A stretch of DNA of 64,000 bases from an uncultured Fibrobacteraceae bacterium (lineage in GTDB: Bacteria > Krumholzibacteriota > Krumholzibacteriia > LZORAL124-64-63). The position numbers were made by a program, and so were the translations under genes. Every line of letters starts with the position of its first letter. Position 1 is the first letter of the stretch. Where the stretch lies: assembly GCA_964437115.1 (NCBI GenBank), contig CAYTFE010000001.1, forward strand, positions 169,429-233,428, given 5' to 3'. A model generated the notes under the pieces. The model made no database searches. It had not been told where the DNA came from and was given only the letters and a program-made list of their open reading frames with translations. Shown in pieces: positions 6,903 to 60,967 of the stretch.

Positions 6903-7021
6903 TTATTCAAGTTACATTACTGAAGTGACTATCTAATGATAGTTGGAAAGAGAGCATATGAGCATAAGCTAACGCGTTTCCGTTGATTTACAACAACTCT
7001 GTATACAGAGGAGATTAGACA

Positions 7022-7744: not shown

Positions 7745-7857
7745 CAACCAGACCGTAAAAGCCTAATTTCGGTCAATAAATTCAAGGTAACTAAAGTTGT
7801 TTCACTAATGAGCCGCTGAAAGGCGTGCCAAACGCTCGTAATGGGCAAGGGGATACC

Positions 7858-8880: not shown

Positions 8881-8967
8881 AATTATGTAAATATTTGTTG
8901 CAGCAAAGATTTAGTTTGACACTGGAGTGAAGGATTATATCATTACAGTTCGCAAACAAACTGCGAT

Positions 8968-9043
<76 letters not shown>

Positions 9044-9049
9044 TTTAGA

Positions 9050-9083
9050 AGAGGAGGCTATATTGTCCTCCTCTTTTTTATTT
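9050..9083 (+). terminator. Rho-independent terminator after tRNA-Gly.
   Basis: agaggagg-ctatattgt-cctcctct followed by a ttttttattt tract. Confidence 0.6.
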
Positions 9084-9133
9084 CTGAATCTTGACTTTAG
9101 TATGCTGATGCTTCATTCTTTAGAATCTGTCAA

Positions 9134-9209
9134 GGCGGCATAGCCAAGTGGTAAGGCGACGGTCTGCAAAATCGTTATTTCCCCAGTTCGAGTCTGGGTG
9201 CCGCCTCCA
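9134..9209 (+). tRNA. tRNA-Cys (GCA)
   Basis: Acceptor ggcggca/tgccgcc, anticodon loop ctGCAaa, T-arm gttcgagtc, CCA encoded. Confidence 0.8.
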
Positions 9210-9213
9210 GTTC

Positions 9214-9244
9214 AAACACCGGCATCGTCGGTGTTTTGTTTTAT
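9214..9244 (+). terminator. Rho-independent terminator after tRNA-Cys.
   Basis: aaacaccg-gcatcgt-cggtgttt followed by a tgttttat tract. Confidence 0.5.
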
Positions 9245-9291
9245 GACAAATGTTGACTTTTGACAACTTCTGAAGCAAGATTCTTCTGTGT

Positions 9292-9379
9292 GCCGGGGTG
9301 GCGAAATTGGTAGACGCAAGGGACTTAAAATCCCTCGATACGTTGTATCGTGCCGGTTCAAGTCCGGCCCTCGGCACCA
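9292..9379 (+). tRNA. tRNA-Leu (TAA), class II with a long variable arm.
   Basis: Acceptor gccgggg/cctcggc (one G·U pair), anticodon stem-loop aggga-ctTAAaa-tccct, long variable arm, CCA encoded. Confidence 0.85.
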
Positions 9380-9409
9380 GAAACTTTAGTTTGTTGAAAG
9401 GAGTAGCAT

Positions 9410-10555
9410 TTGCGAATCGCTTTTCTGTCAATCGGCAGACATATTCACACCGAGAGATGGATACAGTGGTTTGCACAAAGAGGGCACGAATGTCACCTCC
9501 TCACGGTTCAGCCTGGCGATATTGATGGTGTGAAAGTACATGACATCCGCTCAATCGCCCGTCCCAAGCCTCTTCATTATGCAATTTCACTTGTAAAAGT
9601 TAAATCTGCTCTGAAAAAGATTAACCCGGATATTCTGAATACTCACTTTTTAACTGGTTACGGATATTGGGGACATTTTTCAGGAATGCACCCGAATGTG
9701 CTAACTGTTTGGGGCGATGATGTCTATGTAACCCCATATGAAAATAAATTAAAAAGAAAACTAGCAGAAGCTGCTATGAAGTCATGTGATGTATTGACCG
9801 GTGACTCTGTTGATATACTCCAGCAGTCTGTTAGAGATCTGGATGCAAATCCAGATAGGGCATATAGGGTTTTATGGGGTGTTGATTTTTCAGTATTCAA
9901 ACCGATGGATACTTCAAGCTGGCGCAAGGAGCTTGGTTTCGCAGAAAATGATATCATCTACTTTTCGCCTCGCAGTTTTACACAGCCTTATTACAATATT
10001 GATATAGTTATCAAAGCAGCTCAAATTGTTAAATCAACTGAACCACGAGCTCGATTTTTATTTGCTGGCTATGAAGGAGATCCTGCGCCTTTCTGGGAGA
10101 TGGCAACTGAGGCAGGTATCAATGATGTATCAAAGTTCATGGGGCGGATTCCGCACTCAGATTTTGCCAAAGTACTAGCAGGGAGTGATGTGTTTATCTC
10201 AGTCCCTTCAGTCGATGCCACTGCAGTAAGCCTGCTTGAGGCAATGTCATGTTCATCTGCAATTATTGTATCAGACTTGCCTTCCTCAGTGGAATGGGTT
10301 GAAGATGGCGTTTCTGCAAAAGTTGTACCTACTGAAAATGTGGAGTTACTTGCAAGGGCCATGCTTGAATATGCCAACGACTCTGACTCTCGGACAATAT
10401 TTGGTGCAAAAGCAAGGGAGTATGCTCACAAAGTTGCCGGGTTCGATGCTAACATGGAATATGTGGATAGAATATTTAAGTCACTTGTTGAAGATGATGA
10501 GTGCTGGCCAGAAGAAATTTTATTGTCGAATTGCAGGTCACAGGATGTCGATTAA
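9410..10555 (+). CDS. Glycosyltransferase family 1 (GT4-like, retaining).
   Basis: C-terminal EX7E-type motif (SLLEAMSCSSAIIVSD) and a GT-B two-domain layout. It begins about 30 nt after tRNA-Leu. Confidence 0.75.
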   Translation: MRIAFLSIGRHIHTERWIQWFAQRGHECHLLTVQPGDIDGVKVHDIRSIARPKPLHYAISLVKVKSALKKINPDILNTHFLTGYGYWGHFSGMHPNVLTVWGDDVYVTPYENKLKRKLAEAAMKSCDVLTGDSVDILQQSVRDLDANPDRAYRVLWGVDFSVFKPMDTSSWRKELGFAENDIIYFSPRSFTQPYYNIDIVIKAAQIVKSTEPRARFLFAGYEGDPAPFWEMATEAGINDVSKFMGRIPHSDFAKVLAGSDVFISVPSVDATAVSLLEAMSCSSAIIVSDLPSSVEWVEDGVSAKVVPTENVELLARAMLEYANDSDSRTIFGAKAREYAHKVAGFDANMEYVDRIFKSLVEDDECWPEEILLSNCRSQDVD

Positions 10556-11486
10556 ACTTTCAGTCATAATTCCTACATATAATAAAGCAGATTTGTTGCA
10601 ACAAACTCTAGATGCATTATCGAAGCAGAATTTAGATGTCTCCCAATGGCAACTTGTAGTGGTTAATGATGGCTCAACCGATAATACCGATGAAATCCTG
10701 AAAACATTTTCAGATATCTGGAAAGGTAATATTGAGCTTATAAAGCCAGAAGCTAACTTGGGCAGGGCCAAAGCTCGTAACCTTGGTGCAGAATCAGCCA
10801 GCGGTGATTACTTATTGTTTTTAGATGATGATATCGTGGCTCCAGTAAATCTTTTATCCAGCCATATGTTAAAACTTGATGCAGTGGGTGGGTTTGGGGT
10901 CATTGGAACTATTGTCACTTCAGCTGACTTGGTCGATGCTCCACATTTTTATTACATCGATTCCAGAGGTGTTGCAAAAATCAAGGCAGGCTTTGTTCCA
11001 GGTAAATATCTTGTGACCCAGAATTGTTCTATGCCACGTAAATTGTTTATAAAGGTCGGGGGATTTGATGAGAAATTCACGGCCTATGGTTTTGAAGATA
11101 TGGATCTTGGTATCAAACTTTGTAATGCCGGCCTGAAGTTTAGACTGCTAGATGGCCCTGTACCAATCCACGTTCACCATCATACCTTGAGTCAATACCT
11201 TGAGAAAAAACGGGAGTGTGGCGCTGAATCATTGGCACTTATTTCAGAAAAGCACCCTGAAAGTGTTGTCGATATGAGACTTAATTGGGTTCTTGAGAGA
11301 AGGCCTGGTTTTCTGATTAAATATTTCAGGTATTTGTCTACTTCGTTTTTTTATAAATTTGCTGTCAGTTTGGCAATTAAGTGGCCTTCCAACTCTGTGA
11401 ATAAGCCAATTTTCGAAAACATGTATTATAAACTCATGGACTTTTTAGTCATGGCTTCTTTTTATCGTGGATATCTGACATACTGA
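10545..11486 (+). CDS. Glycosyltransferase family 2 (GT-A).
   Basis: SVIIPTYNKADLL, VVNDGSTDNT and a DDD motif. Start assigned to the in-frame ATG at 10545. The 10236 start in the ORF track is a spurious out-of-frame extension across the GT1 3' end. Confidence 0.75.
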   Translation: MSIKLSVIIPTYNKADLLQQTLDALSKQNLDVSQWQLVVVNDGSTDNTDEILKTFSDIWKGNIELIKPEANLGRAKARNLGAESASGDYLLFLDDDIVAPVNLLSSHMLKLDAVGGFGVIGTIVTSADLVDAPHFYYIDSRGVAKIKAGFVPGKYLVTQNCSMPRKLFIKVGGFDEKFTAYGFEDMDLGIKLCNAGLKFRLLDGPVPIHVHHHTLSQYLEKKRECGAESLALISEKHPESVVDMRLNWVLERRPGFLIKYFRYLSTSFFYKFAVSLAIKWPSNSVNKPIFENMYYKLMDFLVMASFYRGYLTY

Positions 11487-13690: not shown

Positions 13691-13840
13691 CCAATATAGA
13701 ACGAAATTATATTTATTTTCGTGAGACGTTTGGCAAAATAATCTAAGTAGTGTAGAGTGAGATAAAAAAGGATTGGGAAGCCATTCTATCATTTGCACTA
13801 TCCTGGTCCTTCGCACAGTCTATTTTCGGGAGGTGCAAAA

Positions 13841-14698
13841 ATGTTTGAAGTAGAATTAAGTTTGGATCGTCGAGAAAGCGGTTGCCTTCAAAATTACCTG
13901 CAGTCAATTGGTCGCTACGACCTGATTACCCGTGAGAAAGAGTATGAATTAGCCAAGCTCATAAGAAGTGGCGATAGAGATGCGCTTGATGCACTTGTTA
14001 ATGCAAATCTTCGTTTTGTTGTAACTGTTGCCAAGAAATTTTTAAATCAAGGGTTAAGCTACATGGATCTGATTGCCGAAGGTAATTTAGGTCTCATAAC
14101 TGCAGCAGGTCGCTTCGATGAGACTAGAGAGTTTCGTTTCATTTCATACGCAGTCTGGTGGATTAGACAATCTATCCAGAAGGCAATTGCTGAACAAACC
14201 AATACAGTTAGATTGCCAGTTAATCGAACTCAGCAAGTTCAGAAGATTAAGAAAATCACCTGGGAATTTGAACAGACCCATTATCGACTTCCTTCTGATA
14301 CAGAACTTTCTGAGCGAGTAAATATCCCATTAGTTAAAATGGCTTTGATAAAAGCAGCAAGCCGGCCACTTGCAAGTTTAGATGAGAATGTTTTTGATTC
14401 TGAAGATATGACACTTTCAGAAATATTGGCTGATGAGTCACTGCCAAATCCAGAGGATGGTTATCTCCAGGGAGAAGTAGTGTCATTAATTGGATCAGCT
14501 CTTGATATTCTGACACCAAGAGAAAAAAAAGTTGTTTCCAGGTATTATGGGCTTGAAGATCTTGAATCTGTATCACTTGAAACTATTGGTCAGGATATGA
14601 ATTTGTCTCGAGAAAGAATTCGACAAGTAAGAAACCAGGCTTTGCTTAAAATCAGAAAACATGTAGCTTCTATGGAAGCTGTTAAGTTTGCTTCATAA
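13841..14698 (+). CDS. RNA polymerase sigma-70 family factor, RpoD-like but short (about 285 aa, no region 1.1); likely the primary sigma of an FCB-type organism.
   Basis: Region 2 (DLIAEGNLGLITAAGRFD, YAVWWIRQSI), region 3, and a region 4 HTH (TIGQDMNLSRERIRQVRNQAL). The ATG at 13841 has a GGGAGG SD, whereas the 13793 start lacks one. Confidence 0.8.
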   Translation: MFEVELSLDRRESGCLQNYLQSIGRYDLITREKEYELAKLIRSGDRDALDALVNANLRFVVTVAKKFLNQGLSYMDLIAEGNLGLITAAGRFDETREFRFISYAVWWIRQSIQKAIAEQTNTVRLPVNRTQQVQKIKKITWEFEQTHYRLPSDTELSERVNIPLVKMALIKAASRPLASLDENVFDSEDMTLSEILADESLPNPEDGYLQGEVVSLIGSALDILTPREKKVVSRYYGLEDLESVSLETIGQDMNLSRERIRQVRNQALLKIRKHVASMEAVKFAS

Positions 14699-22371: not shown

Positions 22372-22558
22372 TTCAAGATTCCCTACCATGTTTGTGATGT
22401 GCCGCTTGGTTTGAGCCAACGTTATTCGTGAGGATGGTCACGTTTTAAGTCGGCTGTCATGCCCCAAAGGGGGAAGGCAAAAGGTTAAACAGGCTATCCG
22501 CCTTTGGAGCAATTGGTTCAGTTGCTTCCGGTCACACGGCTTGGCGGGGAATCTTTAA
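22372..22558 (+). ncRNA. Structured RNA, candidate 6S RNA (ssrS-like), between zapA and rny.
   Basis: A long imperfect helix: AAGATTCCC (22375-22383) pairs with GGGAATCTT (22547-22555). Internal pairs include UGUGA/UCACA and CCAAAGG/CCUUUGG. The predicted RNA is about 185 nt, has locally higher GC, and encodes no ORF. In E. coli ssrS lies immediately downstream of zapA. Confidence 0.35.
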
Positions 22559-22604: not shown

Positions 22605-24164
22605 ATGACTTGGGAATATTATTTAGCTCTAGCAATCACTTTGATTGTTGGCTTTTTCGTGGGATTGCTTGTTCTTAATTTCATAAATAAGAAAAATGGA
22701 GAAATAGCTCGCGAAAAATCCCACCGCCTGATTGAAGAGGCAAACCGGGAGTCTGCGAATATAATTAAAACAGCTTCTCTTGAAGCCAAAGACGAATATT
22801 TTAAATCGAGAAAGTTATTTGAAAGTGAAACAGAGAAGACACGAGAAGAACAATCTCGTAGGACATCTGTTTTAGATCAAAGAGAAACTAACCTTCACAA
22901 GAAAGTAACTTTTGTCGATCATAAAGAAGCAAAATTAGAAAAAATAGAAACTGCACTTAAAGATAAAGAAGAATTGTTAAAAAAAGAAAAAGAACAAGCA
23001 TCTTTAATCGTGTCCAAACAGCAGGATGTACTTGAACAGATTGCTGGTATGACTGCTGAAAATGCAAAGCAAACTTTGATGGACAATATGCTTTCTGAAG
23101 CAAAACTAGCAGCTGCTAAATCATTATATGAAATCAAGTCTGATACAGAAAGAAGAGCTCGCAAAGATGCTCAAAATATTCTTTCACTGGCAATTCATCG
23201 ATATGCTTCTGAACATGTAGCTGAAACATCAGTTTCAGTTGTAGATCTTCCAAATGATGATATGAAAGGGCGAATTATCGGTCGTGAAGGCCGAAATATT
23301 CGTGCATTTGAATTATCGACGGGTGTTGATGTGATTATTGATGACACGCCTGAGGCGGTAATAATTTCTGGTTTCGATCCAGTTCGTAGAGAAGTAGCTT
23401 GTATTGCACTAAGAAAATTAATTAAAGATGGTAGAATTCACCCTGGAAGAATTGAAGAAACTGTTGAAAAAGTTTCGAAAGAAATGGATGAAAAGCTCAA
23501 CGATATAGGGGAACAAGCATGTATTGACCTTGATTTACAGAATGTTGACCACAGATTGTATTACCACATTGGTCGTCTTCATTATAGAACCAGTTATGGT
23601 CAGAACCTGTTGATTCATAGCAAGGAAGTTGCTGCTCTATGCTCAACGATTGCTTCTGAAATTGGGCTTGATCCTGTAGTTGCAAAGCGATGTGGCTTTT
23701 TGCATGACATAGGTAAAGCAACTGACCATGAAGTGGAAGGTCCACATGCTGAAATAGGTGGTCGACTCGCAAGAAAATTCAAAGAAAAACCCAATGTAGT
23801 AAATGCAATAGAGGGCCACCATCATGACATTGAGGCAATTTCACCTTACACATGGATAACTTCAGCTGCAGATGCTGTGTCAGCATCCAGACCGGGTGCA
23901 CGTCGCGAAAGCTTTGATAACTATATCAAGCGCCTGGAGAATCTTGAGCGAATAGCTGAAAGTTACGATGGCGTAGAAAAATCTTTTGCTATTCAAGCGG
24001 GAAGAGAAATTCGAATTCTTGTTGATAGCGCGCAAGTTTCAGATGCAGAGACTACACTTATGTCTGAAGAGATTTGCAAAAAAATTGAAGGTGAGCTGGA
24101 GTACCCGGGCCAGATTAAAGTCATGGTTTTACGTGAAACCAGATCAGTTTCTTACGCAAAATAA
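22605..24164 (+). CDS. rny: Ribonuclease Y (N-terminal TM, KH domain, HD domain).
   Basis: N-terminal TM, coiled-coil region, KH motif (IIGREGRNIRAFE) and HD motif (LHDIGK). Confidence 0.9.
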   Translation: MTWEYYLALAITLIVGFFVGLLVLNFINKKNGEIAREKSHRLIEEANRESANIIKTASLEAKDEYFKSRKLFESETEKTREEQSRRTSVLDQRETNLHKKVTFVDHKEAKLEKIETALKDKEELLKKEKEQASLIVSKQQDVLEQIAGMTAENAKQTLMDNMLSEAKLAAAKSLYEIKSDTERRARKDAQNILSLAIHRYASEHVAETSVSVVDLPNDDMKGRIIGREGRNIRAFELSTGVDVIIDDTPEAVIISGFDPVRREVACIALRKLIKDGRIHPGRIEETVEKVSKEMDEKLNDIGEQACIDLDLQNVDHRLYYHIGRLHYRTSYGQNLLIHSKEVAALCSTIASEIGLDPVVAKRCGFLHDIGKATDHEVEGPHAEIGGRLARKFKEKPNVVNAIEGHHHDIEAISPYTWITSAADAVSASRPGARRESFDNYIKRLENLERIAESYDGVEKSFAIQAGREIRILVDSAQVSDAETTLMSEEICKKIEGELEYPGQIKVMVLRETRSVSYAK

Positions 24165-49750: not shown

Positions 49751-51520
49751 CTAACGACGTCCAAATCGTTTTTCCAAATCTTCAATTGTGAACTGGATAA
49801 GAGTTGGTCGGCCATGAGGACAAGATAGAGGGATGTCTGTTGCAAATAGTTTATCCACCAGGTTTTGCATCTCTGGAACAGTCAATAACTGACCGGCTCT
49901 AATTGCGCCATGACAGGCAAAACTGGCAAGCAGATCATTGGAATCTGCATTAGAGCTTTGATCTGTATCAGACAGGTCATCAAGGATATCCAAAAGCAGT
50001 TGTCCCTCCGACCAGTTCTTAACTGATGAAGGAATGCCCTGTACAATTATTGATTGGCCACCAAATGCTTCAGCAACAAAGCCCAAGGCTTGAAGTTCAG
50101 CCTGGTTGGATTGAAAAGTCTGAACTTGGGCTGGCGAAAGTTCAAGATGCACAGGAAAAAGCAATTGTTGAACAGGAATGGCAAAAGCACCATCATCAAC
50201 AGAAGCCTGAGCTTCATTATACAGAATTCTTTCATGACTGTTATGTTGATCAATTATTACCAGAGCACCTTTTATCTGTGTGCATATATATGTTCTGTGA
50301 AGTTGCCAGAATGGTGCTGAGCGAAGTTGAGAATTTTCGGAAGATGCTTGCTGTTGTGCAACAGATGAATTCGGGCTGTTATCAAACAATCCAGGTTGAG
50401 AGCTATTGCTATCAGTTGCAGAATATTTTGAAGCAAAATGCTTTTTCAAGTAATCATTTTGAGCTTCGTTTATAGAATCAAGATCTGGTGAATCAGACCT
50501 AGGAACATCGGGCAGAGGCGTCAGCTCGCGTAAATTCAAACCATCACGCAGTGACGAATTGATAAGAGAAAATACGGTGCGTTCAAGCATCAACCTTACT
50601 TCGGTTTTTGCTGGATGAACATTGATGTCTACTTCTCCTGCAGGAATCTGCAGAAAAAGTACAACAACCGGATGTCTCCCTGGTGGAATTACTTCTTTAT
50701 AGGCAGTTGCGATTGCTTGTGACAAAAGTGGACTTTTAACAGGTCTACGATTTATAAAAATAAACTGTTGAGTTCGATTGGGGCGTGTCCAGGTTGGCTT
50801 GCTGGCTAGTCCACCAACGGCTATGCCACCCTCTTCAGCTTCAAATCTCGTTAAGTGTTCTGAGGCGGGTCCGCCAAGCAAGTCCTTAACACGTGCAGGA
50901 AGTGAGTCAACTGTAAGGAGATCAAGAACCGGTGCATCGTCAGATAAAAGTTTGAAACGTATTTCCGGATAAGCCATAGCAATTGAAGTTACAACATTTG
51001 TGATTGCCTTTTTTTCAGCAGCCGGTGTTTTTAAATATTTTCTGCGGGCTGGAGTATTAAAAAACAGATCCTCAACAATGATTGTTGTGCCACGATTTCT
51101 TGATGCAGGCTCGCGCCTTTCTGTTGCCCCGCCACAGACACGCATCATTCCGCCAATATCTTCATCTTCCGACCGTGATGTTACAGTGCATCGGGAAACA
51201 GAGGCAATGCTGGCCATTGCTTCTCCCCTGAACCCAAATGAATCGACCTGAACAATATCAGCAGCAGAAACAATTTTGCTCGTTGCATGTCGTTCAAAAA
51301 CCAGAGGCAATTCGCGGAAAGGTATGCCGTGGCCATCATCTTCAACCGAAATTGACGTGATACCACCGTCAACAATATTAACATTAATTTTGGAAGCTCC
51401 AGCATCCAGTGAATTCTCAATTAGCTCTTTAACAACTGATGCAGGGCGTTCGATTACCTCACCGGCAGCTATTCTGTCGATTGAAACAGTATCAAGAATA
51501 CGGATTTGTTTGCGCGACAT
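49751..51520 (-). CDS. mutL: DNA mismatch repair protein MutL.
   Basis: GHKL ATPase motifs (ELIENSLDAG, DDGHGI). The C-terminal domain has the endonuclease-type CPHGRP motif. Confidence 0.9.
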   Translation of the reverse strand: MSRKQIRILDTVSIDRIAAGEVIERPASVVKELIENSLDAGASKINVNIVDGGITSISVEDDGHGIPFRELPLVFERHATSKIVSAADIVQVDSFGFRGEAMASIASVSRCTVTSRSEDEDIGGMMRVCGGATERREPASRNRGTTIIVEDLFFNTPARRKYLKTPAAEKKAITNVVTSIAMAYPEIRFKLLSDDAPVLDLLTVDSLPARVKDLLGGPASEHLTRFEAEEGGIAVGGLASKPTWTRPNRTQQFIFINRRPVKSPLLSQAIATAYKEVIPPGRHPVVVLFLQIPAGEVDINVHPAKTEVRLMLERTVFSLINSSLRDGLNLRELTPLPDVPRSDSPDLDSINEAQNDYLKKHFASKYSATDSNSSQPGLFDNSPNSSVAQQQASSENSQLRSAPFWQLHRTYICTQIKGALVIIDQHNSHERILYNEAQASVDDGAFAIPVQQLLFPVHLELSPAQVQTFQSNQAELQALGFVAEAFGGQSIIVQGIPSSVKNWSEGQLLLDILDDLSDTDQSSNADSNDLLASFACHGAIRAGQLLTVPEMQNLVDKLFATDIPLSCPHGRPTLIQFTIEDLEKRFGRR

Positions 51521-51604
51521 CTAAAGAGGTTTCCTTCTAGCCAAATTGCGAATCGATTTGTTACATGATAGATGCAATTTACTAGTCCCGTCAATGTCTG
51601 CAAA

Positions 51605-53104
51605 TTATTTATCGATTGTCTTTGATATTGCTGATTCAAACAAGTCATTCGCATTGTCGTATTTTCCCGGATATGTCACACGGCCGGCTTGAATGCCAAG
51701 TTTATCTGATTTGATAACTTCTTTAATTATTTGGATTAAGCGTCGTTCAAATCTGGAAACAGATTGAGATTCTTCAGGCGCGACAATAGCGATTGTATTG
51801 TCATTGACCATTGCTAGAGAGTCTGAACTTCTTACTGATTCGATGAGAATTCTGAGTATTGGAGTTACAGGAATGCTAAGCTTGATAACTGTCAAAGAGA
51901 AAGATGTATGATATCGATTTGAGCGGTCTATTTCATTCTTGAGTCGTGCAAGTAAGTCTTGTTCATTTTCAATTGCAGAATCACAGGTAGCACCAATAAA
52001 ATAGTTTTTGAAAGTTGGCAGCAGTTTTAAAGCAAATAAGGCGTCGTCTTTGCAGAACAAAGCACCGTCAAGTTGATGGACTGGAGTTTTCCCATGGAAT
52101 ACAACGGTAAAATCTGAATCATCAATAATAAGTAGATTTGCCGGAAAATCATCAGTGAATGCATAGCCAGATATGGCTTTGTCTTTTAATTCCATCAACC
52201 GATCCGGTATATTGTCTTGTGTCAGGTAGAACTCAACCTTATCGGAACCAAACAGCTGATTTAATACATCAGTATTGAAATCATTATTTTCGGCCAAACT
52301 GAGAACTGTTTCCATGGCGTTCAGAGCAAGATCTGGCCTGTGATTGTCGAGTGAATTGCTTATAACGGTATCGATATTGATTGCAAATGTTTCGAGTACA
52401 TCTTCAATTACTTCTGCAAAGTGTTCTTGGTATGAAGTAGTTGAAAATTCAACAGAAAGTGCCGATTTGAATTTCGTGGTTGTTAATGGAAGATACTCTC
52501 GTATGAAACCATATGAGCCATCGGTGCTATCTATTTTCAGCTTTCGCGATTTCAGTATTGAATTCTGCCAACCAGGGTGACTGTTATCAATTACCCCAAA
52601 CCTGGTAGAACCGTCTTTATCACTTTCAATGAGAAGTAACTTTGAGTCAGGTATTTCAATAGCAACTGATACAAAGTCGGCTTTGAATTCCATTGCAGCT
52701 GTGGAACACCAAACTGCAATTGCGTGATCCACACGATCAAATTCACAGGCTGTTTCATCCAGACTGAAATCACAAATTTCAGATTGAACTGCTGGAACTT
52801 TCATTTTGTGAAAAAAAGAGCTGGTAGAACATTTCGCAATGTTCAGCAGATGTGCGGTATCTGACAGAGAAGCTGAATGTTCCAGTGCGTCAGGATAAAC
52901 AAGAATGGAATTTTCTGGAATATTGTCTTTGCCTATCGATATCAACACTGGAAACCCTAATTTGACAGCTATCTCCTGTGCCGCAACAGAAAGGTTGTCA
53001 GGGTCGAGGATTGCATAAATACTGGCACCAGCGAATAAGGCCTTATCAGAGATAAGTCCAGATTCGTAAACTCCTGGCTGATACAGTATTACTTTCAAAA
53101 TCAC
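51605..53104 (-). CDS. Hypothetical 499-aa protein between mutS and mutL. Its C-terminal about 120 aa may form a highly degenerate GGDEF-like fold (GGEEF replaced by NDNT).
   Basis: No clear motifs. Weak positional similarity of RSNRYHTSFSLTVIKL ... AMVNDNTIAIV ... LGIQAGRVTYP ... DLFESA to GGDEF blocks. The N-terminal 380 aa are unassigned. Confidence 0.4.
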   Translation of the reverse strand: MILKVILYQPGVYESGLISDKALFAGASIYAILDPDNLSVAAQEIAVKLGFPVLISIGKDNIPENSILVYPDALEHSASLSDTAHLLNIAKCSTSSFFHKMKVPAVQSEICDFSLDETACEFDRVDHAIAVWCSTAAMEFKADFVSVAIEIPDSKLLLIESDKDGSTRFGVIDNSHPGWQNSILKSRKLKIDSTDGSYGFIREYLPLTTTKFKSALSVEFSTTSYQEHFAEVIEDVLETFAINIDTVISNSLDNHRPDLALNAMETVLSLAENNDFNTDVLNQLFGSDKVEFYLTQDNIPDRLMELKDKAISGYAFTDDFPANLLIIDDSDFTVVFHGKTPVHQLDGALFCKDDALFALKLLPTFKNYFIGATCDSAIENEQDLLARLKNEIDRSNRYHTSFSLTVIKLSIPVTPILRILIESVRSSDSLAMVNDNTIAIVAPEESQSVSRFERRLIQIIKEVIKSDKLGIQAGRVTYPGKYDNANDLFESAISKTIDK

Positions 53105-53188
53105 TCCCTGGATTGTAGGTACAACAATCCCATGAGTTTATTTTCGGCTATATAAAGCAATGCTTTACATTATTTTCTATATTTTAAG

Positions 53189-55846
53189 TTATTTTTGGGT
53201 AAGCTGCTTCTTCAATTTCGCGAGCCACATAAATGCATCCATGGGGCTTATTTTATTAATATCAAGATCCTGAAGGTTATCCAAAGCAGATCTTTCCTGA
53301 TCGGTGAATAATGATAGTTGATTATGTGCCTGAGAAATGTTTTCGGCGACGATAGAAAAACCGGTAGCATCGAAATTTCCATCGGACAGTGCACGTTGGT
53401 CTTCCAAAGCGAGATTATTCAATATTTGCTCAGCTCTGACCAATACCGGCTCAGGTATGCCAGCAAGTTTAGCGACATGAATTCCATAACTTTTGTCACT
53501 GCAACCTGGTTTCACAGAGTGAAGGAAGATAATCTTTCCCTCCCACTCTTTAACATCCATCTGCATATTTACCAATCGATTCAAGGAAATATCCAGTTCA
53601 GTTAATTCATGGTAGTGAGTTGCAAATATAGTTCGAGGTGAAGGGCTTGAATCTGCATGTAAGAATTCAGTAATTGCCCAGGCAAGAGACAGGCCGTCAT
53701 AAGTTGAGGTGCCACGACCAACTTCGTCCAGGACAACAAGACTGCGTTGTGACATAAGATGTAATATTCTGGCGGACTCGGACATTTCTGAAAAGAATGT
53801 CGATTGTCCACGTGCTACATTGTCGCTAGAACCAACTCGAGTGAATATACGATCGGTAATACCAATCCGTGCCGATTCTGCAGAAACGTGTGAACCTGCT
53901 TGAGCTAGCAAAACAATAAGTGCATTTTGGCGTAAATACGTTGATTTACCGCCCATATTTGGACCAGTCAGCAGGACAATCTGTTGTTCGTTGCAATCAA
54001 GTGCAGTGTCATTGGGAATAAACTCAGATTGCAGTAATTGTTCAACAACTGGATGTCGACCTTTGCGTATGTCCAGTATTAATGAATCATCGCAAACAGG
54101 CTGGCAGTAGTTATGTTTTTCAGCAAGCTCGGCAAAAGACGTCACAAGATCGATTGTAGCAAGGATGTTTGCTGCTTCAGTTAAACTGGAAATATAATCA
54201 GCAACAGAAATAACCAGCTCAGCATAAATGCTGGATTCCAGTTCAGAAATACGATTTTCAGCCTCGATGATTTTGTTCTCAGCCTCTTTTAGCTCAGGAG
54301 TATGATATCGACAGGCATTAACAAGAGTCTGTTTCTGCTCATAATGGTCCGGAACTTTATCAAGATGTTTTTTGGTGACTTCCAGGTAATACCCGAACAC
54401 TTTGTTAAAGCCAACTTTTAAAGTTGGTATACCACTGCTGCCTCGTTCAGATTGCTGTAGGTTTGCAAGGAAACCACGTGTGTCAGAAACTATTACACGG
54501 TAGCTATCCAGTTGCTCACTGAAACCGGTTGCTATGTACCCACCAGATTTCAATAGAGCTGGAGCATCATCTGTCAGAGTAGACGTAATTAATTCTGCGA
54601 GATGAGTAAAGTCGGGTACTGAGCTCGATTCAGATAATTCTGAAACTGACTTTTTGAAATCAAGACTGATGCTATTTAATAACTCTTCAAAAATATTGAG
54701 CGATTTTCCTAATTGCAACAATCTCGATGGCCCAATACGGCCGGAGATTGTTTGTGCTGACATTCGCTGCAAGTCCCCAACACCTTGGAGAAGCGTACGG
54801 ATATTTAATCGGGAATCACGGTCACTTCTACTTGAGCTAACAGTTTGATGCCAGTTGGTAAGTAACTCAATGTTTGTTAAAGGCTCAGCCAGACGATTTT
54901 CTAAAAGTCGGCGTCCCATAGCTGTTATTGTATAATCGATATGATGGATGACTGAGCCTTCGCCCCTGTCACCTCTGAAAGTTTTGAATATCTCGAGATT
55001 GCGCAGTGTTTCTTCGTCGAGCAAGAGTTTATCGCAACGATTAGTGTGGATCAGGGTTGTAATTTGAGCAGGCTTATTCATAGATAGAGTGGAATAATAT
55101 TTCAGTACTGCGCCTGCTGAGCATACAGCAAATGTATAGATATCGTCTTCAAGGTCAAACGGGTCGAGATTCAAAAAACCAAAGTGTTCACACAAGCAAG
55201 TCTTGGAGAATGAAGGATGAAACCATGACGCACTAACAGTATTAACTACAGTTCCAGGAAGTGATTGACGCCAGTTTAAAATTACTTCTGGTTCGGTTGT
55301 TTCAGAGACAATTGCTTCGCGAATATTAAATCGCTCACAAATAGCGAACAAAGATATATGCTCCTGGCCGCACTTGAATTCGCCTGTAGAAGCATCTAGA
55401 ACAGCCCATCCGGCCGTTCCATCTTTACTTTGATGATATGCAAGACAGTAATTTGACGCATTGGCTTCAACAAGGTCAGGTGAAGTAGCCGTTCCGGGAC
55501 TTATAACTTCAACAACTTCCCGCTTTACTAAGCCCTTGGCTTGAGCAGGATCCTCAACTTGTTCACAAATTGCTACTGTATGCCCAGCACTCAAGAGCCT
55601 TGTCAAATATGTTTGAATTGCATGATGTGGAACACCTGCCAAAGGAACAGGATGGTCACTGTTCTTGTCTCTTGTTGTTAAGGTAACTTTTGCTGCATCA
55701 GCGAGTATTTTTGCGTCATCAAAAAATGTTTCATAGAAATCCCCCATTCTGAAAAGCAAAACGGTGTCAGGATGTGCATTTTTAATTTCCAGATACTGTT
55801 TAAGCATAGGGGTAAGTTTTATTTTGCTATCTTTTGACTTGCTCAT
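53189..55846 (-). CDS. mutS: DNA mismatch repair protein MutS.
   Basis: Mismatch-binding N-terminus (GDFYETF), Walker A GPNMGGKST, and C-terminal HTH/dimerisation region. 885 aa. Confidence 0.95.
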   Translation of the reverse strand: MSKSKDSKIKLTPMLKQYLEIKNAHPDTVLLFRMGDFYETFFDDAKILADAAKVTLTTRDKNSDHPVPLAGVPHHAIQTYLTRLLSAGHTVAICEQVEDPAQAKGLVKREVVEVISPGTATSPDLVEANASNYCLAYHQSKDGTAGWAVLDASTGEFKCGQEHISLFAICERFNIREAIVSETTEPEVILNWRQSLPGTVVNTVSASWFHPSFSKTCLCEHFGFLNLDPFDLEDDIYTFAVCSAGAVLKYYSTLSMNKPAQITTLIHTNRCDKLLLDEETLRNLEIFKTFRGDRGEGSVIHHIDYTITAMGRRLLENRLAEPLTNIELLTNWHQTVSSSRSDRDSRLNIRTLLQGVGDLQRMSAQTISGRIGPSRLLQLGKSLNIFEELLNSISLDFKKSVSELSESSSVPDFTHLAELITSTLTDDAPALLKSGGYIATGFSEQLDSYRVIVSDTRGFLANLQQSERGSSGIPTLKVGFNKVFGYYLEVTKKHLDKVPDHYEQKQTLVNACRYHTPELKEAENKIIEAENRISELESSIYAELVISVADYISSLTEAANILATIDLVTSFAELAEKHNYCQPVCDDSLILDIRKGRHPVVEQLLQSEFIPNDTALDCNEQQIVLLTGPNMGGKSTYLRQNALIVLLAQAGSHVSAESARIGITDRIFTRVGSSDNVARGQSTFFSEMSESARILHLMSQRSLVVLDEVGRGTSTYDGLSLAWAITEFLHADSSPSPRTIFATHYHELTELDISLNRLVNMQMDVKEWEGKIIFLHSVKPGCSDKSYGIHVAKLAGIPEPVLVRAEQILNNLALEDQRALSDGNFDATGFSIVAENISQAHNQLSLFTDQERSALDNLQDLDINKISPMDAFMWLAKLKKQLTQK

Positions 55847-56805
55847 AATTCATCAGCTGTATCAACGACTATTGATTCCAGTTCAAATTTATTCTGATAG
55901 AATTCACATGCAGATTCAGCATCAGGTCTGGTTTTCCATGACCCAAGTCTAAGTTTGTAAATCATCGCGCCAGTATCAGAGTTGAAACTCTCTATCTCCA
56001 AGCCTGGAATCATGTCGTGCCAAGAAGAAATGAAAGTAATTGCATTTGATCTGTCATAAAACGCAGCAAACTGGATAGAAAAGCGACCATCGGTTTGTAT
56101 ATTAATAGCCTCCTCTAGCGGTTGTAGAGTATCAGGAATGTCAGGCAGATTGGTGTTTGTATTTATTGCCAAGCAGGCCAACGACGTTGGATACTCAGAT
56201 AAGATAAATTCAGCTGTTTTGAGTGACTTGTTCGGGTCCGAAAGTTTGGTTACGTGATACAAAGCCCATAGAAAAGATGGATCGTTATAAATCTTGTCGA
56301 TGTTGTCCAATATCTGCTCTGCTTTGGAACGCTCGCCTCTTCTTAAAGCAATCATAGCTTTATAATACAGTGCCCATGAGAACTCAGGATTAGATTTGGA
56401 TATTGATGAAAACAGTTCATCGGCAGTATCATAATCGCCATTAAGATAATGAAGTATTGCGGACAGGAATGGAGTCTGGTTTTCAGTGGAATCTTCCGAG
56501 GAATAACCTGGCTTTGCCAGGACTAGTCGGCTTTTTTCGATTTTAACGAAATTTTCAAACTGCGGAAAGTTTACAAAATACTTTGCAGATTCATTGAAAA
56601 GGATAACCAACTCTTCTGGATCTGATTCCAGCCTGATGCGCCAATATAAGTAGTCTACTCCTTTTTGGCCATTGACTCCAAGTGAGTCAAGCATGGCAGT
56701 TGTAGTAGAATAATCGGCAGAATTAAAGTTGAAGTCTACTTCTTCCCATTGAGCGCACGCAGGCACTGTAAGTAAGAACAATAGTAGAAAAACAATTTTA
56801 TTCAC
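55843..56805 (-). CDS. TPR-repeat protein with a C-terminal SPOR (peptidoglycan-binding) domain.
   Basis: Signal peptide NKIVFLLLFLLTVPACAQ if translation starts at a GTG. That GTG has a GGAGG SD and overlaps the lapB stop (GTGAATAA). The ORF-track start at 56982 is an upstream out-of-frame extension. C-terminal FSIQFAAFYDRSNAITFISS...YKLRLGSWKTRPDAESA is SPOR-like. Confidence 0.55.
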   Translation of the reverse strand: MNKIVFLLLFLLTVPACAQWEEVDFNFNSADYSTTTAMLDSLGVNGQKGVDYLYWRIRLESDPEELVILFNESAKYFVNFPQFENFVKIEKSRLVLAKPGYSSEDSTENQTPFLSAILHYLNGDYDTADELFSSISKSNPEFSWALYYKAMIALRRGERSKAEQILDNIDKIYNDPSFLWALYHVTKLSDPNKSLKTAEFILSEYPTSLACLAINTNTNLPDIPDTLQPLEEAINIQTDGRFSIQFAAFYDRSNAITFISSWHDMIPGLEIESFNSDTGAMIYKLRLGSWKTRPDAESACEFYQNKFELESIVVDTADEL

Positions 56806-57973
56806 CAGTGTGTGCCTCCGCCAAAGTTGACTTTGCAACAGTGTCAAAGTTGTTACAAGAAGAGCAATACCAGCGTTTTGAATTGTAAGCTTTATCACAT
56901 TCAGAACATTGCCAGTTAAGATTGTCAGGTGACATATAAATGCTTTCCCAGACACATGTAAAATCACTTGGAGGCAAGTCATTAACTAGAAGTTTAATGA
57001 ATGGTGCAACAGCGACTGGTGTAAATTGTGGATCTCCAGATTTGTTCGACAACATTCTAACAGCTCTTTCTCTATCCCCAACTTTGTCATAGAGGATAGC
57101 CAGAGCAACAATAAGTGAAGCTGGCGCAGAATCATTATGGCAAGCAGATTCCAGAATCGGAATTGTTCTTTCATAACGACCACTACTTAGTAAGGCTTTT
57201 TCAAGAAGCGGGAAAAACAGATCGCCATGAGTTGGAAAATTCAGAAGACCTTCTGTTGAGATTTCAGCACACTTCTCAAAATCTTGCTCAACAAGAGATG
57301 CGTGAGATTCAATTACAAGACGGAAAGAATAATTTGAACTATCCTTGCCTATCGATTTTACCAGTTTCATGGCAAGAGCACTTTGCTCATCAGAAATTGC
57401 AATTTGTGCACGATCCAACTGATAAAGTTCATACCAGTTATTAAAGATGTCTTTATGACTTGCAGACACTTTTTTCACAGCAGACTTGAGTGTTTTTGCA
57501 GCCTCATCATGCTTTTCCATACCAGCCCATTGCTGGAATCGGCACTGCCAAAATATCGGTGTTGCAGGATTCTGACGTTGAAGAGTATCAAGAAGTTCTT
57601 TTGCCTCTTGCCACTTATTGAGGACAATGAGGTCTTGCGCAAGTGCCAATGATATTGAAAACTGCTTTTGAGTACTAACTCCAGGTCTGACAGTTAAGCC
57701 CCGGTGAAGTACAGCAGCACGTCTTGCATCTCCGCTTTCACGCAGAAGGTTTGCAAGTTGCAGATATGGATCAATAGACGACGGGTCATTATCAATTGCT
57801 TCACGCATCGATAAAATGGCCGCACTTATATCTCCGCTGAGCCACTGCTCCAATCCACGAGTGTAAGAATCTTCTTGGACAGTGGAGCGTTTTCTGTGAA
57901 TAGAAAAAAACCAAAACACTATTGCAGTTATGGCTACAATAGAAAATACAAACAACCAGAATTGTATTGTCAT
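56798..57973 (-). CDS. lapB: LapB (YciM)-like LPS assembly regulator: N-terminal TM, TPR repeats, C-terminal rubredoxin-like zinc ribbon.
   Basis: N-terminal TM (FWLFVFSIVAITAIVFWFF). TPR repeats. C-terminal CSECDKAYNSKRWYCSSCNNFD gives CxxC...CxxC. About 391 aa, matching the E. coli LapB architecture. Confidence 0.65.
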   Translation of the reverse strand: MTIQFWLFVFSIVAITAIVFWFFSIHRKRSTVQEDSYTRGLEQWLSGDISAAILSMREAIDNDPSSIDPYLQLANLLRESGDARRAAVLHRGLTVRPGVSTQKQFSISLALAQDLIVLNKWQEAKELLDTLQRQNPATPIFWQCRFQQWAGMEKHDEAAKTLKSAVKKVSASHKDIFNNWYELYQLDRAQIAISDEQSALAMKLVKSIGKDSSNYSFRLVIESHASLVEQDFEKCAEISTEGLLNFPTHGDLFFPLLEKALLSSGRYERTIPILESACHNDSAPASLIVALAILYDKVGDRERAVRMLSNKSGDPQFTPVAVAPFIKLLVNDLPPSDFTCVWESIYMSPDNLNWQCSECDKAYNSKRWYCSSCNNFDTVAKSTLAEAHTGE

Positions 57974-57976
57974 TTG

Positions 57977-58291
57977 TTATTCCTCCACACTCTCATTGTC
58001 AATATCCTTGAGAGGTAATTTACGCAGTTCAGCAATTTCTTTATCCCTGTTTCTGAGAATATTATTAGCGCCTCGTAATTGGTTGCGAAGACGAATTTCA
58101 CGGATGCCTGCAATCATTAGGCTGAAAACAATTCCAAGTAGAAAAGAGGCAATCATTACATAATAAAGAGACAGATCAAGATACTCTTTGTTCAAGACCT
58201 TGATATCAACCGATTGTGAACTGTTTTGGGTAAAGAAAACAGCAAGTATAATAATTACCAATAGATAAATGATACTCTTAAATATTAACAT
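57977..58291 (-). CDS. lapA: LapA (YciS/DUF1049)-like small inner-membrane protein.
   Basis: 104 aa with two TM helices and a C-terminal charged coiled segment. Immediately upstream of the lapB-like gene. Confidence 0.55.
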   Translation of the reverse strand: MLIFKSIIYLLVIIILAVFFTQNSSQSVDIKVLNKEYLDLSLYYVMIASFLLGIVFSLMIAGIREIRLRNQLRGANNILRNRDKEIAELRKLPLKDIDNESVEE

Positions 58292-59624
58292 CGGCAGTTC
58301 CTTTCATGGTGGCCGCAGAAACGATTTTACCTAAAAATGAAGACCCGTTGCTGCCAGTTATCTTCACCGAAATTAAATCGCCAGGTTGAGATTCAGTTCC
58401 ATCGACAATAACCTTGCGGTTATTTGCAGATCTGGCTTTTACTGAATTTTCGGAATGTCTAGCTTCTCCCTCAACTACAACAGACCATATTTCACCAACA
58501 GCGTCTTTTGTTATATTCTGCCAGACTTCTTCCTGAACATCCAGCAATTCCGACAATCTTTCTTTTTTAATTTCGATCGGCACATCGTCAATCATTTTAC
58601 ATGCTGGTGTTCCTGGTCGTTCTGAATACTTGAAACAGAAGGCCTGATCGAATTTGACATCGCGCATCAGCTGGACAGTTTGCCTGAAATCATCATCTGT
58701 CTCACCCGGGAATCCAACAATGAAATCTCCGGAGAATGTTACATCAGGAATCTTTAGCCTAGCTTGCTCTATAATTCGCATATAGTCAGCAACTTTATAA
58801 TATCTTTTCATTCTTTTTAATACCCGATCACTACCACTTTGGGCAGGGATATGAAGCCATGGACAAACTGCATCAAGTTCTGCAATTGTATCAATCAACT
58901 CATCGTCGATGTCACAAGGGTGGCTGGTCAGAAAACGAATACGATCAAGATTTTCAATTCTGGAAACCTGTTGAATCAGTTTGGTAAAATTCATCCCTGG
59001 AGCGCTATATGCTGTAACATTTTGACCAAGCAGAGTTACTTCCCTGCCACCTTGATCAACAATGTTTTTAATCTCATCTAAAATCATCAGAGGAGATTTT
59101 TCACGTTGTGGACCACGAGTCGATGGCACAATACAGTAGGTGCATTTGTAATCGCACCCTTTATGAATAGTAACTAAATGAGAATTATTGACAGGATATG
59201 CTTCAACTGGCGCAACATAGTGAACATCATCCTGGTGGCCGGTTGCTACATTGACTTTAGCGTTTCCAGCTACTGCATTTTCGAGCAGTTGAGGTAATTG
59301 TGCATATTGGTCTACGCCAGCTATAAGGTCAGGTCGATGAGAAACTTCATGAAGCTTTTTACCCAAACGTTCGGCCATACAACCGCAAATACCGATTATT
59401 TGTTTAGGGCGATTTGCACGTTTCTGTTTTATGCGCAAACTACCTATGCGGCTCAGAATTTTGTGTTCAGCATGGTCTCTAACTGAACAGGTATTTATCA
59501 AAACAGCATCAGCAATTTCAGGCAATTCAACGGTAGTATGACCAGCATCTTCAAGTATGCCAGTAATAGCTGTAGAATCATACGAATTCATCTGACAGCC
59601 ATAAGTTTCAATAAATATCTTCAA
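58278..59624 (-). CDS. miaB: tRNA-i6A37 methylthiotransferase MiaB.
   Basis: N-terminal UPF0004 (FIETYGCQMNSYDS), radical SAM CxxxCxxC (CDYKCTYC), and a TRAM domain. Confidence 0.9.
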   Translation of the reverse strand: MKIFIETYGCQMNSYDSTAITGILEDAGHTTVELPEIADAVLINTCSVRDHAEHKILSRIGSLRIKQKRANRPKQIIGICGCMAERLGKKLHEVSHRPDLIAGVDQYAQLPQLLENAVAGNAKVNVATGHQDDVHYVAPVEAYPVNNSHLVTIHKGCDYKCTYCIVPSTRGPQREKSPLMILDEIKNIVDQGGREVTLLGQNVTAYSAPGMNFTKLIQQVSRIENLDRIRFLTSHPCDIDDELIDTIAELDAVCPWLHIPAQSGSDRVLKRMKRYYKVADYMRIIEQARLKIPDVTFSGDFIVGFPGETDDDFRQTVQLMRDVKFDQAFCFKYSERPGTPACKMIDDVPIEIKKERLSELLDVQEEVWQNITKDAVGEIWSVVVEGEARHSENSVKARSANNRKVIVDGTESQPGDLISVKITGSNGSSFLGKIVSAATMKGTADVNI

Positions 59625-60967
59625 GACTCGTCTCCATTAATTTCAATTGTCTGCATTGTAGTTGCAGAAAGTACACCATTTTCAGGAGCACCGATTTTCA
59701 CTTTAAGCAGAGTTCCAGTTTTACATGTCTCTGGAACTTGAATTGTTGTAAAGTTATCCAAAGTAGCATTAATATGTCCAGGAATACCCTGCCCACTCTC
59801 CACTATAGCTTCATGCCAGGTACCTTGCAAACCTTGTTCAAATAGATCTTTTTTAATTTCGCTCAATTGCCTGAGTTTCTTTGAACGCTCAGATGCAATT
59901 AAGGGGTTAACTTGTTTCATTTGTTCAGCTTTTGTGCCCGGTCTGGAAGAATACTGAAATATATGCATATAAGACATTGGCAGTTGTTCAAGTGCTGAAT
60001 ACGTTTCCTCAAACTCAGAATCTGTTTCTTCAGGAAAACCTGTAATTATATCTGCTCCAATCCCAAATCCCGGCAGCAACTTTTCAGCTTTCTTAATTAC
60101 AATAATTGCAATGTCTGTGCGATATGGTCTTTTCATTCTTTCAAGTACAGAATCAGACAAACTTTGCAAAGAGAGGTGCAAGTATGGTTGTAAGTTTTTG
60201 AATTCACTGAAAAGTGAAAGTAACTCATCGTCAACTTCATTTGGATGAATACTGCTTAATCGGAATCTCAACTCAGGGAATTGAGTCAATATTATGGTTA
60301 ACATTTCATACAACGAGATTCTCTGTGAAAAATCGTTGCCATAGCTGCCAACATTGACACCAGTCAATACAAATTCAATGAAACCTTTATTGGCTAGTCT
60401 TTCAATTTGCTCTGCAATATCTTCTACAGTTCTGCTACGGGCCGGTCCCCTTGCTTTCCAAATCAAGCAATAAGTGCAGCGAAGATTACAGCCATCCTGA
60501 ATCTTTACAAAAGCCCTGGTCTTTCCTTCAAAATTTGAAATTAATTCCGATCTGAACTGCATATGTTTATGAAAAGACTCAACTTCTAAAATTTTTGTAT
60601 TCGAAATAATTAAATCAGGTAACCAGTCGGATATATTTTCTCTTTCCGAAATACCATAAATGCCATCAATTTCCGGAATATCTGAAAGAACTTCAGGTTG
60701 TGTCTGGGCATAGCAACCCGTGACAACTACTTTTGCCCCTGGGTTTTTATTCTTTATTCGACGAGCAGTTTGTCGAGTCTTCTGATCAGCTTTACCAGTA
60801 ACGGTACAACTGTTTATGATGAATACATCGGCATCGGAATCCCAAGGCACCACTTCACAATTAATATTGGCAGGTAAAGCGGTTTTCATAGCTTCAGTGT
60901 CATACTGATTTAGTCGACAGCCAAGCGTGTAGAAAGCTATTTTTACTGTTGTGGTACAGTTATCCAA
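59621..60967 (-). CDS. mtaB: MiaB-family methylthiotransferase, MtaB-like (t6A37 methylthiotransferase).
   Basis: KIAFYTLGCRLNQYDTEA N-terminus (MtaB/YqeV-type), radical SAM CNLRCTYC, and a TRAM domain. Confidence 0.75.
   Translation of the reverse strand: MDNCTTTVKIAFYTLGCRLNQYDTEAMKTALPANINCEVVPWDSDADVFIINSCTVTGKADQKTRQTARRIKNKNPGAKVVVTGCYAQTQPEVLSDIPEIDGIYGISERENISDWLPDLIISNTKILEVESFHKHMQFRSELISNFEGKTRAFVKIQDGCNLRCTYCLIWKARGPARSRTVEDIAEQIERLANKGFIEFVLTGVNVGSYGNDFSQRISLYEMLTIILTQFPELRFRLSSIHPNEVDDELLSLFSEFKNLQPYLHLSLQSLSDSVLERMKRPYRTDIAIIVIKKAEKLLPGFGIGADIITGFPEETDSEFEETYSALEQLPMSYMHIFQYSSRPGTKAEQMKQVNPLIASERSKKLRQLSEIKKDLFEQGLQGTWHEAIVESGQGIPGHINATLDNFTTIQVPETCKTGTLLKVKIGAPENGVLSATTMQTIEINGDES

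Follow-up and report, generated by a model that had tools for sequence, protein, structure and literature searches.

Several described proteins couple a GGDEF domain to the binding of c-di-GMP (cyclic dimeric guanosine monophosphate) rather than to its synthesis alone. PopA and other degenerate-GGDEF receptors use an inactive GGDEF domain as a c-di-GMP sensor, in which the inhibitory site (I-site) controls protein-protein interactions. The diguanylate cyclase DgcR binds dimeric c-di-GMP through R206xxD209 in one of its subunits and through R163 in the other, while its R237 corresponds to R390 of PleD; the AxxA variant of DgcR folds and remains catalytically active (PMC8041772). In PelD the ligand is held by a triad composed of R367, D370 and R402 in Pseudomonas aeruginosa and of R363, D366 and R395 in Bacillus cereus; alanine variants lose binding, and the B. 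cereus protein has a dissociation constant of about 100 nM for c-di-GMP (PMC7112168). Here we describe protein X, encoded by an open reading frame (ORF) between mutS and mutL in 64,000 nucleotides (nt) of DNA from an uncultured bacterium of the Krumholzibacteriota (GenBank assembly GCA_964437115.1, contig CAYTFE010000001.1, positions 169,429 to 233,428 of the forward strand). This whole stretch is called the window, and coordinates given without a locus name refer to it. We put at roughly 0.55 the probability that X is a soluble, catalytically inactive GGDEF protein which acts as a c-di-GMP receptor through its I-site, is expressed from its own sigma28-type promoter and is not a mismatch-repair factor.

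X has no Pfam or NCBIfam model and belongs to no curated family. A word-indexed search of 5.8 billion protein clusters returned six relatives with 54-100% identity, none of which has a Pfam domain or is named any further than 'hypothetical protein', and when 1.84 billion representatives were searched exhaustively with a HMMER profile, 59 proteins, mostly of 700-780 amino acids (aa), were found at E ≤ 1e-3. Single-sequence and shallow-profile searches against Pfam, NCBIfam and PDB sequences produced spurious matches to dihydroorotate dehydrogenase and otherwise a GGDEF match alone, which stayed below threshold: X scores 17.7 bits for PF00990, with a gathering cut-off of 23.8, and in all six close members the match is confined to residues 418-492. 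A profile of the C-terminal domain built from 24 family members did find cyclases in the PDB, namely DgcR (E = 7e-8), IsPadC (2.6e-7), a Geobacter GGDEF protein (2e-5) and DosC (1e-4). Since the family consensus 'lRssDrvalledgtllvlaPEe' aligns on 'FRKSDIISRFGGEEFVILFPET' of DgcR, the pentapeptide NDNTI of X takes the place of GGEEF; other members have PDGVT, DDGTL, DEKTL and further variants at this position. The segment between strand beta1 and helix alpha2 is deleted as well, with 'IKLSIPVTP' in X facing IDIDKFKNINDTYGHEIGD in DgcR, the stretch that supplies the Asp for metal binding and the Asn and Asp for guanine binding. The initial annotation of the window, made from the letters alone, had seen no catalytic motif in X and a badly degenerate GGDEF fold with NDNT instead of GGEEF at its C-terminus, and both observations are borne out by these profile matches and by the loss of the two catalytic segments. 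The GGDEF fold by itself would allow X to be an active, if unusual, diguanylate cyclase, but with a variable pentapeptide replacing GG(D/E)EF and with the beta1 Asp and the rest of the D-x-FK-x-x-ND segment gone, synthesis of c-di-GMP by X is excluded and we hold such an activity to be next to impossible.

Nine residues are invariant in an alignment of 40 family sequences, and all of them lie in the C-terminal domain: E391, R394, R397, Y398, H399, R425, D428, R455 and P479. They include an RxxD motif (R425 and D428), separated by five residues from N434 at the GGDEF position, as well as residues that align to the remaining I-site arginines of DgcR (Table 1). In the alignment with chain 6zxm, whose numbering is the native one plus 20, the three arginines and the aspartate fall on the right letters. 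R455 follows the RxxD arginine at a distance of 30 residues, compared to 35 for R402 of P. aeruginosa PelD and 32 for R395 of the B. cereus protein. The I-site residues are invariant although the family is otherwise only 20-30% identical. Because presumed surface residues of the I-site are retained in a domain that has been stripped of its catalytic residues, we infer that X is a c-di-GMP receptor; this is the core of the argument, and according to it the C-terminal domain would keep nothing but its predicted c-di-GMP-binding I-site. The initial annotation had offered three options for X, a repair accessory, a c-di-GMP-type signalling input or an unrelated function, and the second of these fits best, as it is the putative I-site residues that do not vary within the family.

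Modelling with AlphaFold gave a predicted local distance difference test score (pLDDT) of 52.6 when the six close homologues alone were supplied, and a mean pLDDT of 88.6 with a predicted template modelling score of 0.58 when 34 distant members were added to obtain the 40-sequence alignment. The structure-based search suggested by the initial annotation was carried out with Foldseek on the latter model and returned GAF-like domains and a GGDEF fold. The best whole-chain match was the phytochrome-linked cyclase IsPadC (E = 2e-13), followed by DosP, the tandem GAF proteins CyaB2 and PDE2A, and phytochromes. In the model, X thus appears to combine the GAF fold with a nucleotidyl-cyclase-like GGDEF fold, and it is predicted to be soluble and globular throughout. 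The N-terminal domain has no significant relative in Pfam or the PDB: a match to the Rossmann fold of the Gfo/Idh/MocA proteins is weak (E = 0.03), Pfam matches are scattered, and the designed repeat proteins among the PDB profile matches are artefacts. The GAF-like domains possess no conserved pocket residues, and the Pfam models GAF, GAF_2 and GAF_3 find no match in X. These two properties, together with the fact that E391, R394/R397, Y398, P443-E444 and Y478-P479 correspond to positions generally conserved in GGDEF domains, could indicate that X is a ligand-free pseudoenzyme scaffold, in which the GGDEF and GAF folds are structural or dimerisation modules and the Arg and Asp residues are kept for folding. 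We regard this as unlikely. The RxxD motif and the arginine equivalent to PleD R390 are expected on the surface and are dispensable for the GGDEF fold, as seen from the folded and active AxxA variant of DgcR, and that they stay invariant although no catalytic residue is left is most readily accounted for if the domain still binds a ligand, as PelD does.

The X family is confined to a single phylum-level lineage, the Krumholzibacteriota. Wherever the MutL relatives (57-67% identity) are named, their label is Candidatus Krumholzibacteria, and two close metagenome-assembled genomes were recovered by a scan of GTDB genomes with a shallow alignment as query. A homologue search with the family alignment returned the clade of the window and, in addition, GAF histidine kinases, which are unrelated to the X family. 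In three Krumholzibacteria-type genomes the slot between mutS and mutL is filled by a protein of 713-750 aa that has a canonical GAF domain at about residues 136-288 (Pfam E 1e-14 to 5e-17). Residues 1-75 of X align to the N-terminus of these long forms and residues ~110-499 to their residues ~295-750 (BLASTP E 3e-29 to 5e-18, 22-25% identity), whereas the slot of the first GAF domain (GAF1) measures 16 residues in X and 182-214 in the long forms. It follows from this alignment that X in the clade of the window is a shortened orthologue which lost its first GAF domain. The initial annotation had overlooked this loss, as well as the two GAF-like domains of X and its conserved orphan N-terminal domain. 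Such losses have been repeated, with P0152 lacking GAF1 and P0151 and P0169 lacking the last GAF-like module, and the N-terminal and C-terminal domains are retained in all full-length members. This suggests a GAF stalk whose length can change in evolution, between terminal domains that are fixed. Independent short versions, of about 547-567 aa and with different GAF modules missing, comprise these three proteins and those of loci L027 and L028 (at 6001-7660).

That the ORF between mutS and mutL is a real gene, as the initial annotation assumed, is supported both by the conservation of the family and by purifying selection. The ratio of nonsynonymous to synonymous substitution rates (dN/dS) of X relative to its 83%-identical orthologue in L001 is 0.128, compared to 0.035 for MutS, 0.064 for MutL and 0.093 for MiaA. 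Constraint on X is strongest in its first 100 residues (0.041) and in the C-terminal domain (0.084). Overall X evolves at two to four times the rate of MutS and MutL. A pseudogene or chance ORF is ruled out by the dN/dS of 0.13, and a mobile or defence insertion by the core-genome synteny and the unremarkable composition; the base composition of the gene is ordinary, and PADLOC found no defence-system match for X.

The spacers on both sides of X carry conserved promoter-like elements. The initial annotation had noted that mutS, X and mutL are co-oriented with gaps of about 85 nt; this is correct, the two gaps being 84 nt each and the genes being on the same strand, but the implied simple operon spacers are not found, since the elements belong to two different classes. 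Upstream of X the window has a sigma28 (FliA)-type element with one mismatch in the 12 positions of the consensus; the motif has no other match in the 64 kb. The sigma28 consensus is given as TCTAAAG (-35) and GCCGATAA (-10), or as TAAAGTTT-N11-GCCGATAA (PMC12784957, PMC4866697), and promoters bound by FliA in Escherichia coli, among which TCAA and GCCGAAAT variants occur as well, drive ycgR and yhjH, both of them c-di-GMP genes (PMC4183435). The 12 positions of the literature consensus were scanned in 18 distinct mutS-X spacers and, for comparison, in 410 kb of other locus sequence. With up to three mismatches, 15 of the 18 spacers matched (22-fold enrichment); six did so with up to two (86-fold), and three with at most one, at which level no matches occurred elsewhere. 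The spacing between the -35 and -10 parts was always exactly 15. Most of the genes for flagella and chemotaxis have been reported from one metagenome-assembled genome of the Krumholzibacteriota (PMC10936416). In the window and several lineages, the CCGA core is followed 17 nt downstream by a conserved GGAT/GTTGGAT box (53110-53135, minus strand), which is placed between the sigma28-like -10 and the start codon. In L007, L024 and L025 a TTGACA sequence overlaps the sigma28-like spacer, so that a second overlapping promoter or an operator is possible.

The X-mutL spacer harbors an element of the sigma70 type. The pattern TTGACG-N17/18-TA(N2-3)CTT occurs in all 25 distinct X-mutL spacers, compared to 0.5 expected for TTGACG on shuffling, and it may provide a first model of the housekeeping promoter of the phylum. 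The element spans AT-rich and GC-rich lineages (window, L001-L029), and its -10 part resembles TAnnCTT rather than TATAAT. X and mutL therefore appear, as far as such predictions go, to have separate promoters of different classes, which weakens the operon argument for a role of X in repair and fits a c-di-GMP effector that is tied to motility.

The genomic context of X was examined in 30 loci: some belong to close relatives and to sister genomes anchored by MutL, and others came from scans of GTDB and, with a 13-sequence subset, of metagenomes. All were searched by tblastn with the neighbour proteins of the window. The linkage count excludes the 1-kb L030, which is too short, and the divergent members P0136, P0146, P0173 and P0179, which were not placed in a genomic context. 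The initial annotation had asked whether orthologues are always flanked by mutS and mutL, and this is the case: mutS precedes X and mutL follows it, on the same strand, in 29 of the 29 loci with readable flanks. Across these loci the identity of MutS falls to about 51-55% and that of X to 22-31%. The wider order lapA-lapB-SPOR-mutS-X-mutL-miaA-DUF512-der-plsY-gpsA is mostly retained in the lineage, with the mutS-X-mutL-miaA core outlasting its surroundings; L009 diverges past miaA, and in L017, L018 and L020 miaA and DUF512 are separated by an insertion of about 1.1-1.3 kb. In L009 (10098-15395), a 1163-aa WD40/CARDB/caspase-like (Peptidase_C14) protein and a second Peptidase_C14 protein replace the synteny downstream of miaA.

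The constancy of this arrangement despite the divergence of X, the persistence of the core where downstream synteny breaks or DNA is inserted, and spacers for which no terminators are predicted would all favour X as a mismatch-repair accessory or regulator that binds MutS and/or MutL, perhaps with its N-terminal domain, and couples repair (mutation rate, recombination barrier) to a second messenger. We find this improbable. The linkage is not independent evidence of a common function because it was inherited with a long syntenic block in one phylum, in which unrelated housekeeping genes spanning about 20 kb (lapA/lapB, SPOR, miaA, DUF512, der, plsY, gpsA) are conserved to the same degree. Furthermore, X and mutL each have their own class of promoter-like element, X changes faster than both of its supposed partners, and it lacks any DNA-binding, nuclease, ATPase or clamp-binding feature; comparison with Pfam, NCBIfam and the PDB revealed no match to MutH, MutS2/Smr, UvrD, exonucleases or the clamp. 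In the literature we found no c-di-GMP effector that targets MutS or MutL. X therefore probably owes its position to inheritance within a long conserved block of housekeeping genes and not to a shared function, and the repair-accessory role put forward in the initial annotation finds no support, as nothing beyond position favours it. A more specific version, in which X would be a second-messenger-gated mismatch-repair switch that binds MutS or MutL through its N-terminal domain, tunes repair efficiency to c-di-GMP or to the motile/sessile state and is kept in this arrangement throughout the Krumholzibacteriota, is distinctly unlikely.

If X is a c-di-GMP receptor, the following mechanism can be proposed. 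X would dimerise through its helical GAF stalk, as tandem-GAF and phytochrome proteins do, and an intercalated (c-di-GMP)2 would cross-link the two dead GGDEF domains by means of R425, D428 and R455 at the primary site and R397 at the secondary site, as in product-inhibited DgcR and PleD. The resulting change may reach the conserved N-terminal domain, and this would then serve as the module for output or for binding a partner. Transcription of X would start at its own sigma28 (FliA)-type promoter, alongside late flagellar and chemotaxis genes as for YcgR in E. coli, and mutL-miaA would be transcribed from a sigma70-type promoter of their own.

A number of points weigh against the receptor proposal. 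The I-site argument is drawn from alignment and conservation, and four of the invariant residues (E391, R394, R397 and Y398) also tend to be retained by ordinary GGDEF domains on structural grounds. The sigma28-like motif was first noticed in the data and only afterwards tested against the literature consensus, it is absent from 3 of the 18 mutS-X spacers, and the window encodes a single sigma factor, which is RpoS/RpoD-like and not FliA. As no terminators are predicted in either the mutS-X or the X-mutL spacer, read-through from mutS and into mutL is possible. The mutS-X-mutL order is unbroken across the phylum, which unrelated functions leave unexplained. Finally, no ORF with a GG(D/E)EF motif was found in the 64-kb window or the fetched loci; in the literature, we found no link between Krumholzibacteria and diguanylate cyclases. 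The lack of such an ORF in this DNA, as well as the extra canonical GAF domain of the long forms, which could bind a small ligand, would also agree with X sensing another molecule: the former I-site might take up GTP, (p)ppGpp or a different cyclic dinucleotide, or a GAF pocket might hold the ligand. This is very unlikely in our view, as the conserved residues are the c-di-GMP contacts of DgcR, PleD and PelD, and the canonical GAF domain is dispensable, having been lost in the clade of the window and in P0152.

The coordinates of X, its parts and its direct neighbours are collected in Table 1. The GTG at 53104 is merely the first possible start of the ORF; because every homologue opens with MKVILYQPG and a GGGAG sequence is located five bases ahead of the TTG at 53098, the product is probably the shorter of the two lengths given. 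Genes for modification of tRNA A37 (miaB/mtaB and miaA) bracket mutS-X-mutL, in the window as well as in L001, L002 and the P0006 contig. The former are two adjacent, overlapping radical-SAM methylthiotransferase genes (58278-59624 and 59621-60967, minus strand) that NCBIfam identifies as MiaB and MtaB. On the same strand, a LapA-domain gene (57977-58291) precedes a gene for a LapB-like TPR protein (56798-57973), which has weak NCBIfam LapB matches and a C-terminal CxxC...CxxC motif. The conserved block also contains plsY, gpsA and a lipid A acyltransferase-like gene downstream; together with lapA/lapB these make it rich in envelope-lipid genes, a conceivable target of a c-di-GMP effector. The TPR/SPOR ORF (55843-56982, minus strand) is listed with 379 aa and a 185-nt overlap with the lapB-like gene; its start is probably near 56805, as the orthologues are called at 320 aa. 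Elsewhere in the window, a 6S (SsrS) RNA (22377-22554, plus strand; Rfam 73.6 bits, gathering score 46.4) is found directly before the RNase Y gene (22605-24164), and three clustered tRNA genes (8968-9376, plus strand) are located between a Gfo/Idh/MocA oxidoreductase gene and glycosyltransferase genes. The region around them (5817-11486), with a DegT aminotransferase, a sugar transferase, GT4 and GT2, resembles a cluster for polysaccharide biosynthesis. The sigma factor gene (13793-14698, plus strand) encodes a 301-aa group-2 protein that is RpoS/RpoD-like and stays below all NCBIfam equivalog cut-offs; it has dnaK upstream and an adjoining tRNA gene.

Table 1. Features of protein X, its gene and the adjoining genes and spacers in the window; domain boundaries and promoter-like elements are predictions.
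Feature	Coordinates	Strand	Remarks
mutS	53189..55846	-	Upstream neighbour of X; five MutS Pfam domains; TIGR01070, 844 bits (cut-off 641.7)
sigma28/FliA-type promoter-like element	53142..53167	-	TGTAAAG...GCCGAAAA, i.e. TAAA-N15-GCCGAAAA; ends 37 nt upstream of GTG 53104
Protein X ORF	51605..53104	-	499 codons counted from GTG; probable true start TTG at 53098, giving 497 aa
N-terminal alpha/beta domain, aa 1-100	52805..53104	-	Motifs PGE, DP.G, AE.mG.PV; model pLDDT about 90
Low-confidence (disordered) linker, aa 101-116	52757..52804	-	GAF1 scar; pLDDT 46; sister lineages hold a canonical GAF of about 190 aa
GAF-like domain A, aa 117-232	52409..52756	-	From the model
Long connecting helix, aa 233-277	52274..52408	-	From the model and Foldseek; typical of tandem GAF/PHY dimers
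GAF-like domain B, aa 278-372	51989..52273	-	Shortened; near-invariant K339, D346, F350, D354
Short linker, aa 373-380			From the model
Catalytically dead GGDEF-fold domain, aa 381-499	51608..51964	-	alpha-beta-alpha-beta-beta-alpha-beta-alpha
R394-S-N-R397-Y398-H399	51908..51925	-	Arg, Tyr and His invariant; R397 aligns to DgcR secondary I-site R163
R425-S-S-D428	51821..51832	-	Invariant RxxD, primary I-site; R425 = DgcR R206, D428 = DgcR D209
N434-D-N-T-I438	51791..51805	-	Occupies the GG(D/E)EF active-site position; not conserved in the family
R455	51740..51742	-	Invariant; aligns to DgcR R237 = PleD R390, extra primary-site Arg
sigma70-type promoter-like element, X-mutL spacer	51565..51594	-	TTGACG-N18-TATCAT; also picked up by a generic promoter scan
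mutL	49751..51520	-	Downstream neighbour of X; TIGR00585 'mismatch repair endonuclease MutL', 503 bits (cut-off 180)
miaA	48827..49750	-	Abuts mutL

If the receptor proposal is true, X represents an undescribed family of soluble c-di-GMP receptors that is publicly listed just as 'hypothetical protein', and it would provide a first point of entry to the second-messenger signalling of an uncultured phylum. It would also show that a diguanylate cyclase can be reduced to its allosteric site, with the orphan, constrained N-terminal domain probably being the output module. The two conserved promoter motifs would be the first sequence models for sigma70-type and sigma28-type promoters in the phylum. 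Should the position between mutS and mutL prove functional, it would constitute the first direct link between c-di-GMP and mismatch repair.

Compared to the described systems, X shares with PopA-type receptors the inactive GGDEF domain, but these have Rec input domains and a different biological context. The similarity to DgcR and PleD concerns the I-site, which corresponds residue for residue at the primary (DgcR R206, D209, R237) and secondary (R163) positions and would likely accommodate a c-di-GMP dimer bridging two GGDEF domains. DgcR and PleD differ in being active enzymes with Rec input domains, whereas X has no active site, so that the I-site would be the sole function of the domain. 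Like IsPadC, PDE2A and CyaB2, X has GAF/PHY sensor modules and long helices, with a helical linker leading into the C-terminal GGDEF domain in the case of IsPadC; unlike these proteins, it lacks a PAS domain, a chromophore pocket and a motif for binding cyclic nucleotide monophosphates, its output domain is dead, and the signal flow is probably reversed. With E. coli YcgR, which together with PdeH belongs to the FliA regulon, X has in common that a c-di-GMP-related gene lies behind a promoter of the TAAA-N15-GCCGATAA type, but YcgR is a PilZ protein with a demonstrated function as flagellar brake, and for X the promoter class and the connection to motility are deduced from the DNA. The arrangement of a GAF domain followed by a degenerate GGDEF domain, with an I-site triad of RxxD and an arginine about 30-35 residues later, is that of PelD. 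Unlike X, PelD has a membrane anchor and is a product of the pel operon, as the c-di-GMP receptor of the Pel polysaccharide system, and no pel genes are located near X; moreover, X has two GAF-like domains (three in the long forms), an unrelated N-terminal domain and a further truncated GGDEF fold, and no relationship between the two was detected at the sequence level. Nevertheless, PelD is the closest functional analogue of X, and the GAF/PHY-GGDEF cyclases are its closest structural relatives.

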